Positions 46,545-51,026 of a DNA stretch of 64,000 bases are shown one piece after another. The notes under the pieces are model-generated. The model searched no databases. It saw nothing but the letters and a program-made list of their open reading frames with translations, and was not told where the DNA came from. The stretch is from an uncultured Planctomycetota bacterium (GTDB taxonomy: Bacteria > Planctomycetota > Planctomycetia > Isosphaerales > Isosphaeraceae). How positions within the stretch are numbered: the stretch's first letter is position 1; each line of letters opens with the position of its first letter. A program made the translations under genes and the position numbers. The DNA is taken from assembly GCA_963737655.1 (NCBI GenBank), contig CAVTTN010000002.1:4800001-4864000 (forward strand), given 5' to 3'.

Positions 46545-47029
46545 CGTTCCCTCAAGGCCAGGGGAGGAAGGCGGACGACCCATCCCGCCGGGCGGCACCC
46601 ATTATTCTACGGCCGAGGGGAAAATACCACGAGTCGCCAACCCAAGAACCTCGCCCCGGGTCCGTACCCGGCGAGTCACCAGCGGGACGGGCCCCGGAGT
46701 TCGATCCCATCTCTCCCTCGAACCCCGGTCGCCCCGCGGACTAACATGAAAAGATCCACAATTTTGATTTCGAAGGCGGGAACGGCGGCCCAAAGGTCCA
46801 GGCCAAGGCCACTCGCATTAGTTATCGGGGCGCGACGACCATTAATCATACACGTACGCATATTGGGGTTTTTCTCTTTGAATTCCCGGGCGGAATCCGG
46901 GATCACGTCGAAGAGCAGGGACGGGGCGGCGTCTCAATCGACGAATCGAGGAGGAGCTGGATCGAAAAGCCTTGCGGAGGGTGTTTCCCGCCGGCAAAAT
47001 AAAATCCGCCAGGGATTACGCGTCATTTC

Positions 47030-47049
47030 CGACGTCTACTCCACGTTAG
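47030..47049 (+). other. Putative integron attI site, interrupted by IS110
   Basis: cgacgtctac-tccac-GTTAG. The reconstructed core is GTTAGGC, and no attC-style hairpin lies upstream. Confidence 0.55.
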
Positions 47050-47287
47050 TCGCCATGCCGCGAGTGGCACCCTGAGACGATGAAAATGGGCCGCGACCGA
47101 GGTAGACTCGGGGTGCCGCACGCACGTCGGGTCCCGGCCGTCGTCGCCTGGTGCCGCGAGCCCGCGTGTTAGTCTGGCCCGGACATCGCGCCGCATCCGA
47201 GACTGTCGCCCCCGCCCGGGGAGCACGCAGAACAGAGTGTTCTTCCACGCGATGTCCCCCGGCGTGCGTCGGCGGGGGGGGTTCGCC
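47050..47287 (+). ncRNA. Putative IS110 bridge RNA (seekRNA) in the 5' non-coding end; exact RNA ends unknown
   Basis: Guide-like segments cgtgttag (47165-72), cgccgc (47189-94), cagaacag (47228-35) and gcga (47249-52); each pair is separated by a small hairpin. Confidence 0.7.
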
Positions 47288-48526
47288 ATGCAGGTGCTCC
47301 ATCGCTGTTGCGCGGGGTTGGACATCCACAAGGATACCGTCGTCGCCTGCGTCCGCCGCGTCGATGACACGGGCAAGGCCCGCTCGCAAGTACGGACCTT
47401 CGGGACCATGACCGGGGCCTTGATCGAGCTGGCTGATCGGCTGGCCGAGCAGGGCGTCGTCCACGTCGCGATGGAGTCGACCGGCGTGTACTGGAAGCCG
47501 GTCTGGCACCTGCTGGAGGGGCGGTTCGAGCCGATGCTGGTCAACGCCCAGCACATCAAGCAGGTGCCGGGCCGCAAGACCGACGTCAAGGATTGCCAGT
47601 GGATCGCCGAGTTGCTCCAGCACGGCCTGCTCAAGGCCAGCTTCGTGCCGCCGGAGCCGATCCGCGAGCTGCGCGACCTGACGAGGCAGCGGGCGCAGAT
47701 CGTCGCCGAGCGGGGCTCGGTCGCCAACCGCATCCAGGGGGTGCTGGAGGACGCCAACATCAAGCTCGGCTCGGTGGCCACCGACGTGCTGGGCGACTCG
47801 GGTCGCGCCATGTTGCGGGCGTTGATCGAGGGCCAGGACGACCCGGAGGCCCCGGCGGAATTGGCCAAGGGGCGGCTGCGGGCCAAGATCCCGGCGCTGC
47901 GGCTGGCGCTTCGCGGGAAGGTGACGGAGCACCACCGCTTCCTGCTGCGGCTCCTGCTGGACCACTACGAGGCGCCGGAGGCCCTGATCGGCCGACTGGG
48001 GGAGCGGATCGACCGGGTGCTGGCGCCGTACGCCGAGGCGGTGGAGCGGCTGGAGACGATCCCCGGGGTCGGCCGCCGGGTCGCCGAGATCGTCGTCGCG
48101 GAGCTGGGCGTGGAGATGGGGCAGTTCCCGACGGCTCGCCACCTGGCGAGCTGGGCCGGGATGTGCCCCGGGAACAACGAGAGCGCCGGCAAGCGCCGCA
48201 GCGGCAAGACGACCAAGGGGAGCCGCTGGCTACGGACGGCCCTGATCCAGGCGGCGCACGCGGCGGGCCGGAGCAAGGCGACGTATCTGGGGTCGCAGTA
48301 CCGTCGGCTGGCATCGCGGCGCGGGGCGAAGCGAGCGGCGGTGGCGGTGGGCCATACGCTGCCGGGGATCATCTACGAAGTCCTGGGCCGGGGGACGACC
48401 TACGAGGATCTAGGCCCCTGCTACCTGGAGCGGTTGGAGCCCGAGCGATTGACCCGGCAACCGGTCAGGCGCTTGGAACGGCTCGGCCACAAGGTTACAT
48501 TGGAACCCAACGAGGCGGCCGCGTAG
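47288..48526 (+). CDS. IS110-family DEDD transposase/recombinase
   Basis: GLDIHK, MESTGVYW, KTDVKD, TIPGVG and NNESAGK motifs. Confidence 0.95.
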   Translation: MQVLHRCCAGLDIHKDTVVACVRRVDDTGKARSQVRTFGTMTGALIELADRLAEQGVVHVAMESTGVYWKPVWHLLEGRFEPMLVNAQHIKQVPGRKTDVKDCQWIAELLQHGLLKASFVPPEPIRELRDLTRQRAQIVAERGSVANRIQGVLEDANIKLGSVATDVLGDSGRAMLRALIEGQDDPEAPAELAKGRLRAKIPALRLALRGKVTEHHRFLLRLLLDHYEAPEALIGRLGERIDRVLAPYAEAVERLETIPGVGRRVAEIVVAELGVEMGQFPTARHLASWAGMCPGNNESAGKRRSGKTTKGSRWLRTALIQAAHAAGRSKATYLGSQYRRLASRRGAKRAAVAVGHTLPGIIYEVLGRGTTYEDLGPCYLERLEPERLTRQPVRRLERLGHKVTLEPNEAAA

Positions 48527-48562
48527 GGCGCATTTTCAGAACAGGCGGCGGAGGCGATCTCG

Positions 48563-49111
48563 ATGAAGTTATCCTTCGTCCTTGAATCTATTGCCGTCGT
48601 CTCCGTCGGCCTCGGCCTGGCGCGATGGCACATCCAAGATCCGGTTTACGCCGAAGGCTACGCGGATTCCGGGGGGGCCGAGTGGCTCAGGCAGGTAGGC
48701 GACGGTTTCTTCGCGGGGGTCGCCGTCGCCGGGTTCCTCGGGCTAATGGTCGAGGTCGCTGCACGGCGGTCTCCCCGACCCTGGGGCCTGGGCCGATGGG
48801 CCTGGTCGGTTGTCGGCCTCTTCGTCGTCTCGCGGCATGCCTTGGGCGTGGTATTCGACGCGATCGTGCATTGGTACATGGGGATGATGAAGGAGTTCGC
48901 CGCAGATCTCCTCCCGCGTCTTCGCGCCAATCTGTGCCATTGGCTGCTCGCTATCGCACCTTATCTCATCATTGCGGTTTGGACGACGCGTTGGGTGTCG
49001 GGACCGAAGGCCGGCCGCGCCGATGGACGGGAGTGGGCCGGCCGGATCTTTGGGATCCTCATCATCGTGACGATGGTTGTCATTGATTGCCTCGCTACAG
49101 CCGGGTTTTGA
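48563..49111 (+). CDS. Integron cassette 1: hypothetical multi-TM membrane protein
   Basis: GGAGG RBS, lower GC, stop 11 bp before attC1. Confidence 0.75.
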   Translation: MKLSFVLESIAVVSVGLGLARWHIQDPVYAEGYADSGGAEWLRQVGDGFFAGVAVAGFLGLMVEVAARRSPRPWGLGRWAWSVVGLFVVSRHALGVVFDAIVHWYMGMMKEFAADLLPRLRANLCHWLLAIAPYLIIAVWTTRWVSGPKAGRADGREWAGRIFGILIIVTMVVIDCLATAGF

Positions 49112-49122
49112 TCATATGTGCC

Positions 49123-49222
49123 GCCTAACCTTGCGCTGCAGCGGACCCCGCACCGCCACGGTATCTTTGGTATCATCAACATCAACTCGGCGGTGCGTGT
49201 CCGCTGAGCTTGGTTGTTAGGC
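49123..49222 (+). other. attC site 1 (100 bp)
   Basis: GCCTAAC...GCTGCAGCGGAC...GTCCGCTGAGC...GTTAGGC imperfect palindrome. Confidence 0.92.
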
Positions 49223-49233
49223 CGAGGGGAAGC

Positions 49234-49746
49234 ATGCCCGAGCCAACCCGACCGAACGCCGTTTGCCGACTACTGGAAGCCGCTTACGGGCTGACCATCG
49301 AGCGGGTGTCGGCGCTGCCGGACGGGGACGCGGAGCGGATCGCCGCCTGGCGAGTCGCGGAGCGGGAGTTCGAGAACGCGGCCAAGGACTTCATTACGAT
49401 CGCGGCGACCACGGATTTGATCCCGGCCGGAGAGGAGCGCCTCCGAGTGGCGCTCATCGCCGCCGTCCAGACCCTGTGGGCGCGGCAGTGGACGACCGCC
49501 GCGACTGGAACGGACGCCGAGTTCGAGACGCTCCGCCGGGGGCAGAAACCCTGGGTGTTTCAACTGCTGGCCCTGCTCAGCGCGACGCGCCGAGCCGAGT
49601 CTGAGACGGACGTCGGGAGGTGGTTCATGCTGCACGGAGTCTCATACCCCAACCGCTACCGCGAGCCGCGTCACCAGGAATTGTTCGAGGTCCTCGTGCG
49701 GCTGGCGCGGGAGGAGCTATCAGCGGCGGCCGAGATCCGGGCCTAA
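49234..49746 (+). CDS. Integron cassette 2: hypothetical protein
   Basis: Starts 11 bp after attC1; its TAA stop lies inside the GCCTAAC box of attC2, as is typical for cassettes. Confidence 0.8.
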   Translation: MPEPTRPNAVCRLLEAAYGLTIERVSALPDGDAERIAAWRVAEREFENAAKDFITIAATTDLIPAGEERLRVALIAAVQTLWARQWTTAATGTDAEFETLRRGQKPWVFQLLALLSATRRAESETDVGRWFMLHGVSYPNRYREPRHQELFEVLVRLAREELSAAAEIRA

Positions 49747-49840
49747 CCTCGCGCTGCAGCGGACCCGGCCCGCCGCGACGCTTTCTGGTAACACGGATGC
49801 CACTCTCGGCGGGCCGGGCCGCTGAGCTTCGGCGTTAGGC
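49741..49840 (+). other. attC site 2 (100 bp)
   Basis: GCCTAAC...GCTGCAGCGGACCCGGCCCGCCG...CGGCGGGCCGGGCCGCTGAGC...GTTAGGC. Confidence 0.92.
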
Positions 49841-49908
49841 GGCGATAGCGGGGGTTGGCCTTGCCGCGGGTTTCCGTTCTGGATGCAGCGAAAACGTGGA
49901 GAAGATCG

Positions 49909-50289
49909 ATGCCAATTCCAGAAAGCATAGGTGCCTTTGCCATCGTTCCTAGCAACGATCTGCCGGCCGCGATTCCGTTCTGGGAGCGTTTGGGTTTCGC
50001 TCGGACGGGTGGTGACAACGCGTACATAATCATGACCGGCTGGGGGTGCGAAGTGCATCTCACCCAAGCCGGCCCGGACGCCTGGCGGGTTCCGGAAGCA
50101 CACAATCCGTTCGGCGTATTCATCCGCACCCCGGACGTTGACGCCATTGCGGCACGCGTCGATGACCTGATCATCCGACCTGGCGGAGTCCTTCGTCACC
50201 GAGAGTGGGGACTTTATGAGGTCGGAATCTGTGGGCCGGACGGCATGCTCGTGCGTATCGGCTGGCCATCTAAACTGATAAAAGCGTAG
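49909..50289 (+). CDS. Integron cassette 3: VOC/glyoxalase (bleomycin-resistance-like) protein
   Basis: DLPAAIPFWERLGF...EWGLYEV.ICGPDG.LVRIG. Confidence 0.85.
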   Translation: MPIPESIGAFAIVPSNDLPAAIPFWERLGFARTGGDNAYIIMTGWGCEVHLTQAGPDAWRVPEAHNPFGVFIRTPDVDAIAARVDDLIIRPGGVLRHREWGLYEVGICGPDGMLVRIGWPSKLIKA

Positions 50290-50691
50290 ACGCCATCGTC
50301 CTATCTCAGCCGCCTCTTCGTGAACTCTTCTCCATAGAACGGCCGTCGATGCGCAACATTCCCCCGACCCCTGGCCTTGTGGCCGGGCAGCGACGAGGTC
50401 CGGGTGGCAATCCGACGGATTCGGGATCGGCGATCGAGGCGCGGGCCAAGAGGGGAATCGGTTACGTTTGCAGTCTCTTCGACGGGGACATCCCCGCGAG
50501 TCGCCGCGCGGGGCGTCGCCGATGACCGGATCACGACCTCTCGGGCCAGGCTAACCTACGGGCATGGAGCACCGAGGTGGATACGGCCACCGACCCGCGC
50601 CACGAACCGGGCTACGCCGCGCCGGGTCGGTGGGCAAGTCGGCCCCGGCCCCCGTTCACGCCCCCTCGGGAGCGGACGAAGGCCGCAGGAT

Positions 50692-50791
50692 GGTTAACCT
50701 CGCGCTGCAGAGGACCCCGCACCGCCGCGGCGCCCACCGTGCTATTATCGCCGTCTCGGCGGTGCGAGTCCGCCGAGCTTGGTCGTTCGAG
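50692..50791 (+). other. attC site 3 (100 bp, terminal, slightly degenerate)
   Basis: GGTTAACCTCGCGCTGCAGAGGACCCCGCACCGCCG...CGGCGGTGCGAGTCCGCCGAGCTTGGTCGTTCGAG; closely similar to attC1. Confidence 0.85.
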
Positions 50792-51026
50792 GATTTTTGC
50801 CGTCGGGCGATCCTACCGAATTGAGCCCCGGGGGCGTCGGGGGTACGATGGCCGTCGAGCGACGGGTTTTCCGAGGCGGACGGACCGCGAGGGGTCCGGG
50901 GCTTCGGTGCGACGCCGGGGGACGATCGCCGGGCGGCCCGATCGCCCCGGCCCCCGGCCCGGCGAGGCCCGTCCCGCCTTCGGCCCGCGCCTCTCGCCTC
51001 GACGTTCGACCTGGGGACCGGGTTTC

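Follow-up and report, generated by a model that had tools for sequence, protein, structure and literature searches.

Mobile elements that seek out the recombination sites of integrons are, to our knowledge, known only from the IS1111-attC group of insertion sequences and the group IIC-attC introns, and for the most part from class 1 integrons of clinical origin. The founding papers on the IS1111-attC group, which includes ISPa21, ISPst6, ISKpn4 and ISPa25, are reportedly those of Tetu and Holmes from 2008 and of Post and Hall from 2009; where we set this group apart from the element described below, we do so by the descriptions given in later papers. A seekRNA is described as demonstrated for ISKpn4 and ISPst6 in the text cited here (Siddiquee et al., 2024, PMC11187229). 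For IS621, the structural text cited gives D11, E60, D102, D105 and S241 as the catalytic residues (Hiraizumi et al., 2024, PMC11208158), and in the cited preprint text on ISPpu10 a hairpin 5' of the target forms a second layer of specificity (bioRxiv 10.64898/2026.03.19.712850).

Here we describe a locus from a 64,000-nucleotide stretch of DNA of an uncultured Planctomycetota bacterium, hereafter the window. It contains an apparently intact IS110-family element with a predicted bridge (seek) RNA, and we consider it likely that this RNA is programmed for the integron core and that the element finds its own insertion site. The element and its surroundings are laid out as follows.

46940..47049, + strand: orphan attI-like sequence and left target, ending in the left core half ..CACGTTAG; assigned by homology to the intI-adjacent attI
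47050..48544, + strand: complete IS110-family element of 1495 bp (one of the two AG copies counted), with AG at both junctions (47048-47049 on the left, 48543-48544 on the right) and ends common to three other genomic copies
47050..47287, + strand: left end with predicted bridge RNA, architecture conserved in 52 distinct relatives
47081..47088, + strand: left sub-terminal inverted repeat TGAAAATG, an exact 8-nt inverse match to CATTTTCA at 48531-48538
47288..48526, + strand: gene for a DEDD transposase/recombinase of 412 aa (P0001), apparently intact, with ATG at 47288 and profile matches
48545..48562, + strand: right target, the start of cassette 1 by sequence, GCGGCGGAGGCGATCTCG, with GGAGG before the ATG at 48563
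48563..49111, + strand: cassette 1 open reading frame, 182 aa, no family by profile search
49123..49222, + strand: attC of cassette 1 (GCCTAAC ... GTTAGGC), by motif
49741..49840, + strand: attC of cassette 2 (GCCTAAC ... GTTAGGC), by motif
50692..50793, + strand: third attC, both ends altered (GGTTAAC ... GTTCGAG), by motif; end of the array

The left junction (47049|47050) reads ...CTCCACGTTAG|TCGCCATGCC... and the right junction (48544|48545) reads ...CATTTTCAGAACAG|GCGGCGGAGGCGATCTCGATG, with ...CACGTTAG and GCGGCGGAGG... as the respective flanks. Deletion of the element and one AG in silico gives CACGTTAGGCGGCGGAGGCGATCTCGATG, which contains the rebuilt core GTTAGGCGGC, and the start of the attC of cassette 1 (GCCGCCTAAC, 49120-49129) is the exact reverse complement of that core. 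An earlier note on this DNA had proposed exact insertion into GTTAG^GC and the same correspondence between rebuilt core and attC start; both hold, and the junction strings it quoted are found in the sequence. The range it gave for the element, 47041..48551, does enclose it, but the limits are too wide by 9 and 7 flanking nucleotides. The long 5' non-coding end that it described is also there, at 238 nt (47050-47287) vs. 18 nt at the 3' end. The two ends of the element, TCGCC... and ...CAGAACAG, are not inverse to each other and there are thus no terminal inverted repeats; ATGAAAAT at the left end and ATTTTC at the right are conserved across the family of the element.

The transposase matches PF01548 (9.5e-30, the N-terminal DEDD/RuvC-like domain) and PF02371 (1.1e-22, C-terminal) and scores 286.8 bits against NF033542 (cut-off 140), with residues D12, E63, D99, D102 and S299 invariant in a 10-sequence alignment. 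In its domains, catalytic residues, ends and site specificity the element belongs to the IS110 family in the wide sense. The nearest named relative of P0001 is ISArsp3, at 48.7% identity over 99% of P0001, a name taken from the NCBI annotation of the match on Arthrobacter sp. FB24 plasmid NC_008538.1; a BLASTP comparison of P0001 with the ISEc21 transposase gave no significant match (E = 0.016). In tblastn searches of plasmids, ISArsp3 and ISEc21 were the sole element names to come up.

The left flank is homologous, in two pieces at 82% and by comparison by eye, to the attI beside the only intI above the cut-off in the genome (C2:6777135-6778073), which lies 1.9 Mb from the attI-like sequence of the window, and tblastn detected no intI remnant beside the latter. 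Judged by its sequence, the left flank is an orphan attI-like site and not an attC. The suggestion that the element targets the cassette core itself stands as far as insertion in a core is concerned and calls for two amendments, as the core at the window site is that of the orphan attI-like sequence and a second lineage, described below, occupies the other arm of attC. To the right, GCGGCGGAG is a frequent cassette start within the genome. Cassettes are delimited by attC sites whose R'' and R' cores are inverse to each other. Three of these sites are in the window, and the attC motif has 86 hits genome-wide, about 81 of them genuine by reading. As the element is inserted 4 nt downstream of the G|TT crossover of the integrase, it is formally within the first cassette. 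It had also been supposed that the insertion breaks the core, cuts the array off from an upstream promoter and possibly freezes it. This is partly doubtful because GTTAG, the crossover triplet included, is preserved at the left junction, and the element runs in the same direction as the cassettes with 36 nt (48527-48562) between the transposase stop codon and the ATG of cassette 1.

The 5' end of the element contains a predicted two-loop module (47136-47257) which is conserved in 46-52 distinct relatives and consists of the following parts.

47136..47140, + strand: 5' strand of the target-loop closing stem, GGCCG, with its partner TGGCC at 47175-47179; covarying pairs and regex module
47141..47149, + strand: predicted right target guide UCGUCGCCU, pairing with top strand AG+GCGGCGG through 7 Watson-Crick and 2 G:U pairs
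47149..47164, + strand: small hairpin between the target guides (UGGUGC..GCCCG), with compensatory changes in columns 27-31, 46 / 62-66
47165..47174, + strand: predicted left target guide CGUGUUAG followed by UC; the guide (47165-47172) equals the left flank plus AG, and UC the opening dinucleotide of the left end
47181..47257, + strand: predicted donor loop, its outer stem formed by GGACAUCGC (47181-47189) and GCGAUGUCC (47249-47257)
47204..47209 with 47223..47227, + strand: donor-loop inner stem, UGUCGC with GCACG, from the RNAalifold alignment
47228..47235, + strand: predicted left donor guide CAGAACAG, the same sequence as the final 8 nt of the element

RNAalifold found compensatory changes in 11 of 14 pairs across 46 sequences, and in the pairs of the target-loop closing stem both sides had changed in 13, 5, 17 and 1 sequences. 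Covariation of the donor outer stem was seen by eye in four relatives (L024, L025, L017, and L023). In the donor loop, the 5' strand shows conservation and no covariation, and a search of this strand for a right donor guide, which would serve the left-end side of the donor, found none. Folded as a single sequence, the whole 5' end has a minimum energy no better than that of shuffles (z = 0.65); the structure rests on the alignment. An Rfam scan of positions 40000-64000 at E<=1 returned no match.

Across 46-60 relatives, for which 51 distinct guide sets were tabulated, three variable segments of this module follow their counterparts in the DNA, namely the left flank with AG, the right flank, and the right end of the element itself. 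In these comparisons the ends of each element were set independently of the guides, the right end by TTTTC alone. The left donor guide is identical to the element's own right end at 7/7 positions in 56 of 60 relatives (mean 6.8 vs. 3.9 when shuffled), and the left target guide is identical to the element's own left flank at a minimum of 7 of 8 positions in 31 of 49 (mean 6.43 vs. 3.70). For the right target guide, contiguous pairing from the core averages 4.44 vs. 3.08 in shuffled pairs, whose maximum was 3.59 (n=59). The two extra nucleotides after the left target guide equal the start of the left end in 29 of 40 relatives (shuffled mean 5.7), and the core dinucleotide shifts jointly in the two left guides, target and donor, to AA in L045 and L068 and to AC in L047 and L054. 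Relatives with different guides are found in different, non-integron targets, as would be expected if the RNA sets the site.

A mechanism can be proposed by analogy with IS621, ISEc21, and ISKpn4, as modeled in the texts cited (Durrant et al., 2024, PMC11208160; Hiraizumi et al., 2024, PMC11208158; Siddiquee et al., 2024, PMC11187229). The element would excise as a circle joining ...CAGAACAG to TCGCC..., and the bridge RNA would be transcribed from the left end. The target loop would pair with both strands of CRYGTTAG|GCGGCGG and the donor loop with the circle junction, and the DEDD/Ser recombinase would swap strands at the AG core.

Besides its one complete copy, the genome holds three further copies, a 3' half and two 89-bp minis.

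C2:286889-287601: 3' half copy with the same right end; right flank GCGGCGGAGG, then different DNA
C2:4298419-4298507: 89-bp mini inside a true attC, left flank ..GGGCTTCTGTGTTAG|
C2:1121384-1121472: 89-bp mini in another orphan attI, left flank ..CTTCATGTTAG|

The earlier note had staked its reading on the ends and flanks of other copies. All three share the ends of the window element, both minis carrying both ends, and in every readable left flank (3/3) the junction follows GTTAG, at one and the same base of an attI-like sequence or attC, two of the three being attI-like. The 3' half copy is directly downstream of an attC left half, and the right flank of one mini (AGCTTACC) matches the right guide at the core only. 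In two soil metagenomes, both contigs that cross the right end of relatives at ~92% keep GCGGCGG(A) and then diverge, and the mini form is also seen among these soil relatives. Four sequencing runs that were compared contained relatives at 90-95% only; the window stretch itself was not found in the runs searched, the best share of words being 0.14. Across 30 related genomes the left flank was shared only in its trxB part (query positions 1-454), and at five loci of related genomes (L103-L106 and L108) neither an attI-like sequence nor cassettes were present within 1.5 kb; these genomes are neutral as to an empty site. A relative from Brocadiaceae, L023 (64% identity; its left guide is AGGGUUAG), was considered as support and dropped, because its sites could not be tied to integrons: its full copy and two minis all lie at GTTCGGGTTAG|G, and no GGGTTAG was found within 1.5 kb around the four intI hits of that genome.

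The insertion pattern is more than chance, since both ends recur in the minis, the right end recurs in the 3' half, GTTAG is found in three of three left flanks and GCGGCGG in two of two soil contigs. A genome scan with a simple guide-target pairing score gave the window site 15.0, and 37 AG sites reached at least 15, only two of them attC cores. This score did not single out integron sites and was dropped as a predictor of them, and a factor beyond it must contribute to site choice. That 37 unoccupied sites score as well by simple pairing, and that GTTAGGC occurs ~38 times outside integron sites by our own count, would suit a chance hit or the recognition of a short motif (AG or GTTAG) with no true integron link. 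This is extremely unlikely when all three readable left flanks fall in att sites at the same base, there being ~90 att sites among 15 million strand positions, and when the right flank GCGGCGG is common to two copies of this genome and two from metagenomes. Alternatively, IntI may have carried the element within gene cassettes, so that the core position would not reflect targeting of its own. An insertion 4 nt inside the cassette boundary is compatible with such passive arrival, as IntI could in principle move element and cassette together, but past the first 10 nt each of the four copies runs into a different sequence, the 3' end of the element lacks an attC, its guides match its flanks, and relatives with other guides occupy non-integron targets; we regard this explanation as improbable.

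Targeting by the element's own RNA thus remains the preferred reading, and it can be narrowed. The left guide of the window element pairs at 8/8 positions, with one to two wobbles, with the attI-type cores CATGTTAG and CACGTTAG and at only 5-6 positions plus a wobble with the usual attC R' ends GTCGTTAG and GGCGTTAG. In the attC occupied by a mini, the end is an unusual TGTGTTAG, with which the left guide pairs at 7/8. Because of this fuller pairing with the attI-type cores, wobbles counted, the attI-cassette junction is probably the preferred home of the element, some attC R' ends being near-cognate. A stricter version, to which we give a little under even weight, would make the element a specialist of the attI junction whose attC R' insertions are off-target, in which case "cassette core" is too broad a name for the target; it refines the main reading and does not oppose it. 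The guide pairing just described and the two attI-like flanks among the three readable ones point this way, although the known insertions number only four, the 3' half copy lies just 3' of an attC left half and may have been an attC insertion, and the right guide fits AGGCGGCGG, the general cassette start found after attC and attI alike. The true attI beside intI is empty (..CTACTTCATGTTAG|GCGGCTCAGG), as are six further attI-like copies by our own count, leaving two of ~9 attI-like sites occupied and seven well-matching attI-like cores empty.

The same genome contains a second IS110-family lineage, here called IS-B, with six full copies and 28 transposase-less derivatives of 380-390 bp. Its transposase, of 450 aa, shares 33.7% identity with P0001. 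Every copy and derivative lies in attC, and together they occupy the R'' (5') arm of 35 of the 86 attC hits, antisense to the cassettes, with left guides that end in GGUUAG. One derivative is in the window.

50314..50693, - strand: transposase-less IS-B derivative abutting the third attC at its R'' end; 28 copies in the genome, at 88-100%

This derivative has its own target loop, with left guide UAGGUUAG+CC at 50558-50549, and a sharp left boundary, the flanks being unrelated among copies. IS-B shares the target-loop plan of the window element, namely GGCCG, right guide, UGGUGC..GCCCG, left guide with two more nucleotides, and UGGCC. Its derivatives have the guide module in full; the 89-bp minis of the window element, by contrast, are reduced to the two ends. 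The window element is therefore one of two IS110-family lineages aimed at the integron core, on opposite arms of attC, and the two together occupy ~40% of recombination sites.

These observations can be joined in a wider reading, which we put forward tentatively and would place somewhat below an even chance. Both lineages may belong to a large clade, spanning Planctomycetota, Acidobacteriota, Chloroflexota, Actinomycetota and others, with a third bridge-RNA layout that would combine a left-end RNA of IS110 type, a guide order of IS1111 type, long sub-terminal repeats and a 2-nt "handshake" beside the left target guide. Two lineages of the clade would have been retuned, in this genome, to the two arms of the integron core, one on attI/R' in sense and the other on R'' in antisense, the latter with transposase-less derivatives that have guide RNAs of their own. 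If this is true, integron sites are a shared safe harbor and cassettes a possible vehicle for RNA-guided elements. The elements may also have helped to scatter the arrays into the ~nine attI-headed, integrase-less clusters of this genome.

The locus is of interest on several further counts. A distant IS110 branch in a large environmental chromosomal integron system has here come to the same kind of target as the known groups, from which it differs in layout, position and orientation. The attI-cassette junction is among its targets, which is not reported for those groups in the descriptions cited here. It offers a natural case of guide reprogramming onto the core site of a recombinase. With the element just inside the cassette boundary, it is also suited to asking whether such insertions stand in the way of recombination by the integrase, are compatible with it or make use of it. 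In addition, guide rules that apply across the family could serve to infer the targets of many IS110 copies that lack annotation.

Turning to the known systems, the IS1111-attC elements resemble the window element in their DEDD transposase, their place in the wide IS110 family, their use of one fixed position in an integron site and, as predicted for the window element, guidance by an RNA that is encoded in the non-coding end and matches the site on both strands. Membership of this group (the ISPa21, ISPst6, and ISKpn4 type) would account for the shared family and habitat, for the exact sub-terminal inverted repeat, whose 8 nt (TGAAAATG/CATTTTCA, both family-conserved) fall within the 7-17 bp of the IS1111 group, and for a right target guide placed 5' of the left, which is the order of IS1111-type seekRNAs in the text cited (Siddiquee et al., 2024, PMC11187229). 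It is nonetheless highly unlikely. The guide region of IS1111-attC elements is downstream of a transposase of 330-350 aa according to the same text (PMC11187229), whereas that of the window element is upstream of a transposase of 412 aa and its right end, at 18 nt, is not the long one of that group. They insert antisense near the 5' end of attC as described in PMC3001079, whereas the window element lies in sense at the R' core GTTAG|GC or attI; its nearest named relative, moreover, is ISArsp3. The proposal of the earlier note that this is a possibly distinct lineage, apart from IS1111-attC, is thereby upheld.

The layout is that of the IS110 group, with a long left end, a short right end and the predicted guide RNA upstream of the transposase gene, and the left target, right target and left donor guides all covary with their targets beyond shuffled pairs. 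The guide order departs from this group, in which the bottom-strand left guide is 5' of the top-strand guide, an order taken from the text of Siddiquee et al. (2024, PMC11187229): in the window element the right guide (47141-47149) precedes the left (47165-47172), and this is constant in all aligned relatives. IS621 and ISEc21 are alike in their long left end and two-loop RNA, target loop before donor loop, with two guides per loop split by a small hairpin, a 2-nt core in target and donor, and the DEDD and Ser residues. A guide search in ISEc21 (L122), made as a control on the guide order and by a k-mer approach only, gave no clear guide matches. The window element differs from this type in its reversed target-loop guide order, right guide 5' of left, in its longer sub-terminal repeat, and in the 2-nt extension, which equals the left-end start and adjoins the left target guide, whereas the handshake guides of IS621 adjoin the right guides in the text cited (PMC11208158). 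ISArsp3, the closest named relative, has no known integron link. The REP-targeting elements (ISPpu9, ISPpu10, ISPa11, and IS621) are likewise RNA-guided and use a short, repeated, hairpin-forming and safe landing site, which is a REP in their case and an integron site in that of the window element. Overall, the known principle of RNA-guided IS110/IS1111 elements is left unchanged.

The IS110-family element of the window, in a 7.63-Mb source genome of 68.7% G+C, is, as judged from its sequence, a real, well-bounded and apparently intact RNA-guided insertion sequence. It spans 1495 bp between its two junctions and holds a single ORF, whose product (P0001) matches PF01548 and PF02371 in Pfam and scores 286.8 bits (cut-off 140) against the NCBIfam model 'IS110 family RNA-guided transposase'. 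In P0001 the residues D12, E63, D99, D102 and S299 do not vary when the protein is aligned with nine relatives; these residues correspond to the D-E-D-D plus Ser active site described for IS621 (Hiraizumi 2024, PMC11208158).

Junctions and transposase gene of the element, read in the window sequence (^ marks a junction here and below)
47049^47050: left junction, ...CTCCACGTTAG^TCGCCATGCC...
48544^48545: right junction, ...CATTTTCAGAACAG^GCGGCGGAGGCGATCTCGATG
47288 (ATG) to 48526 (stop): transposase ORF, P0001, 412 aa

The earlier note quoted both junction strings correctly, and its rebuilt core, GTTAGGCGGC, is borne out, with the exact complement GCCGCCTAAC present at 49120-49129; the insertion that it described stands, but the range it gave for the element was too wide by 9 and 7 nt.

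The left flank of the element (46940-47049) is a diverged copy of the true attI region, which lies between intI and the first cassette and ends ...GGGGATTCTGCGTCACTTTCGATGTCTACTTCATGTTAG^GCGGCTCAGG. Upstream are trxB and ftsH with no integrase there, no integrase remnant was found beside the attI-like copy, and the one integron integrase above cut-off in the whole genome is 1.9 Mb from the site. Downstream are three attC-type sites.

attC-type sites downstream of the element
49123-49222: attC-type site
49741-49840: attC-type site
50692-50793: altered third site

Taken together, the attI-like flank, the missing integrase and the three downstream sites place the element in the recombination core of what reads as an orphan attI, heading a three-cassette, integrase-less array. 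The cassette 1 and 2 ORFs matched no Pfam family; that of cassette 3 (49855-50289, 144 aa) has a weak match to PF00903 of the glyoxalase/bleomycin-resistance/dioxygenase superfamily (21.8 bits, cut-off 20.6). The insertion lies 4 nt past the G^TT crossover on its downstream side, which would formally make the element the beginning of cassette 1. At the left junction GTTAGTC stands in place of GTTAGGC, and the element runs in the same direction as the cassettes, with 36 nt (48527-48562) from the transposase stop to the cassette-1 ATG. The idea of a broken or frozen array gains no support from the analysis.

Five more attI-like copies (160-194 bp, 84-95% identity), plus shorter pieces, occur elsewhere in the genome; all of them stand at the head of a cassette cluster or within one, and no integrase accompanies any of them.

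Copies of the attI region, about nine in the genome (C2, coordinates within the source genome)
C2:283628-283821
C2:1672754-1672913
C2:1969509-1969668
C2:5884730-5884908
C2:5876219-5876332
C2:1121473-1121649
window 46940-47049

Approximately nine attI-region copies, 84-95% identical to the intI-adjacent one, are set against one integrase gene, and most head integrase-less cassette clusters. The proposal that IS-mediated rearrangement can create integrase-less arrays (Cury et al. 2016) would fit this ratio. The genome has 86 attC motif matches, ~81 of them judged genuine and most ending ...CCGCTGAGCTTnGnCGTTAG^GCGGC. GTTAGGC heptamers number 140 on both strands, against ~815 expected from base composition alone, and by our own count ~102 of the 140 fall within attC or attI.

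Three additional copies of the element are present in the same genome, two of them 89-bp minis made up of left-end sequence (~45 nt) and right-end sequence (~25 nt).

Additional copies of the element
C2:286889-287601: 3' half copy; left flank truncated; right flank GCGGCGGAGG, then unrelated DNA
C2:4298419-4298507: 89-bp mini; left, within a true attC, ...GGGCTTCTGTGTTAG^; right, ^AGCTTACC
C2:1121384-1121472: 89-bp mini; left, an orphan attI, 84% to the true attI, ...CTTCATGTTAG^; right, ^GCTCACC

The left flank can be read in three insertions, and each time it ends in GTTAG, at an identical base of an att site; neither different ends nor unrelated sites, which would have spoken against the reading in the earlier note, were seen. 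The true attI is a natural empty site, as are six other attI-like cores. None of the public sequencing runs searched contains the window stretch. Comparison of soil metagenome runs X1 and X7 with window 46700-48900 gave contigs with relatives of the element at ~90-95% identity; the two contigs with ~92% relatives that extend past the right end both retain GCGGCGG(A) and then diverge, and X1 has a mini form (left end, 33 nt, right end). A ~190-bp palindromic stretch (C2:286700-286888) separates an attC left half from the truncated 3' half copy; its ends are repeated (GGGTCAAAAAGGGGACGG ... four tandem GTCCCCTTTTCGGCCCCAC-like units), and it is probably linked to the loss of that copy's 5' half.

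We gathered 78 loci with transposases 50-72% identical to P0001 from many phyla; in 67 of them the upstream sequence sufficed, and the 5' ends of these were aligned together with the window's own. These share a layout: a stem (GGCCG with UGGCC), a variable 8-10-nt segment, a small hairpin (UGGUGC..GCCCG), a second variable segment (8 nt) with 2 nt after it, the stem's closing strand, and then a second loop. A 9-bp stem closes this loop, which contains a conserved strand (GAACCCGAAAC), an inner stem and the third variable segment, again of 8 nt. RNAalifold recovered three of these stems from 46 distinct sequences, with compensatory changes in 11 of 14 pairs; a single-sequence fold of the element's 5' end was unremarkable and an Rfam search gave no match. 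Element ends were located independently of the guides (right, TTTTC; left, sub-terminal repeat plus CATG). Copies of one element are not independent, so the following counts overstate independent events, yet the contrast with shuffles is still large: the third segment equals the element's last 7 nt in 56/60 records (mean identity 6.8 vs. 3.9 shuffled); the second is at least 7/8 identical to the 8 nt left of the insertion in 31/49 (mean 6.43 vs. 3.70, shuffle maximum 4.41); the 2 nt after it match the opening 2 nt of the left end in 29/40 (shuffled mean 5.7); and the first is complementary to the core and right flank (mean contiguous run 4.44 vs. 3.08, shuffle maximum 3.59; runs of at least 6 in 17/59 vs. 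a mean of 3.9). Non-AG cores change together in both loops (AA in loci L045 and L068, AC in L047 and L054). In the terms used in the text of Durrant et al. (PMC11208160), the first, second and third segments are the right target, left target and left donor guides; a donor guide for the left-end side was sought in the 5' strand of the donor loop and not found.

Predicted guides of the window's element
47141-47149: right target guide, UCGUCGCCU, pairs with AGGCGGCGG (7 Watson-Crick + 2 G:U)
47165-47174: left target guide, CGUGUUAG+UC, equals CACGTTAG^TC save two wobble-compatible changes
47228-47235: left donor guide, CAGAACAG, equals the element's right end

The integron core GTTAG^GC is the target indicated by these guides and by the four insertions, and attI-type cores are probably preferred. 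By analogy with IS621, ISEc21 and ISKpn4, the guide RNA would be transcribed from the left end, the element would excise as a circle joining both ends, and strand exchange would occur at the AG core. In a plain count of guide pairs the window's site scores 15.0; 37 other genomic AG sites score as high, only 2 of them attC cores, so pairing as counted here cannot fully explain why all four insertions are at integron cores. A greater weight of positions adjoining the core, or a hairpin flanking the target of the kind reported for ISPpu10 (bioRxiv 10.64898/2026.03.19.712850), might supply the extra specificity. In several relatives (loci L017, L019, L070, L018 and L049) the left end of a copy immediately follows the right end of a full or mini copy, and many left targets resemble the right end of a related element (TTTTC..CAG), which suggests tandem or nested insertion beside relatives.

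A second IS110-family element occurs in the same genome as six full copies and fragments, with a 450-aa transposase 33.7% identical to P0001. Its copies all lie within cassette arrays, antisense, abutting the R'' (5') end of attC. The target-loop layout is that of the window's element, and the left guide, CAGGUUAG, corresponds to the R'' arm on the opposite strand (...GCGAGGTTAG^GCGGC). A 380-390-bp relative that lacks a transposase gene has 28 genomic copies with sharp boundaries and abuts the R'' end of 27/86 attC matches. In its target-loop module (minus strand), GGCCG-UAUCCACCU-CGGUGC..GCCCG-UAGGUUAG-CC-UGGCC, the target guide is UAGGUUAG+CC, and the donor guide CGAAGAG is identical to the right end of this relative itself. 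The relative looks like a non-autonomous IS110-type element that encodes only a guide RNA.

Second lineage and transposase-less relative
C2:288476-289636, minus strand: full copy
C2:1675828-1676988, minus strand: full copy
C2:1973376-1974536, minus strand: full copy
C2:4671748-4672908, minus strand: full copy
C2:6779111-6780271, minus strand: full copy
C2:6784876-6786036, minus strand: full copy
window 50314-50693, minus strand: 380-390-bp element, guide module found

Together the second lineage and this relative take the R'' end of 35/86 attC matches. Two guide-diverged lineages thus appear to share the integron core as a landing site, the window's element being the rarer. In all copies seen of the second lineage and the 380-bp element the left junction is GGTTAA^ (e.g., window 50692-50699), whereas their guides end ..UUAG and the corresponding strand of free attC sites has GTTAG^GC; AG^GCGGC is retained at the right junction, and therefore the core differs between the two junctions.

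The closest named relative of P0001 is ISArsp3 (48.7%), and BLASTP against the ISEc21 transposase gave no significant match. A full-text literature search found no report of an IS110-group element aimed at attI or the R' core. With the IS110 group, as the text of Durrant (PMC11208160) describes it, the window's element shares an RNA region upstream of the transposase gene; with the IS1111 type it shares a sub-terminal inverted repeat and a top-strand guide 5' of the bottom-strand guide, an order that the text of Siddiquee (PMC11187229) gives for IS1111-type and not ISEc21-type RNAs. IS1111-attC elements are known attC hunters, with a seekRNA shown to match the attC end (Siddiquee 2024, PMC11187229). 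According to the text of these sources, they insert in antisense orientation relative to the cassettes, close to the 5' end of attC (PMC3001079), encode their RNA downstream of the transposase gene and have transposases of 330-350 aa (PMC11187229). The window's element departs from this description in site and orientation, in its upstream RNA and in its 412-aa transposase, in agreement with the possibly distinct lineage that the earlier note proposed. It would be convergent with, yet distinct from, IS1111-attC, and its layout may already be drawn for certain members in the 2024 papers' figures.
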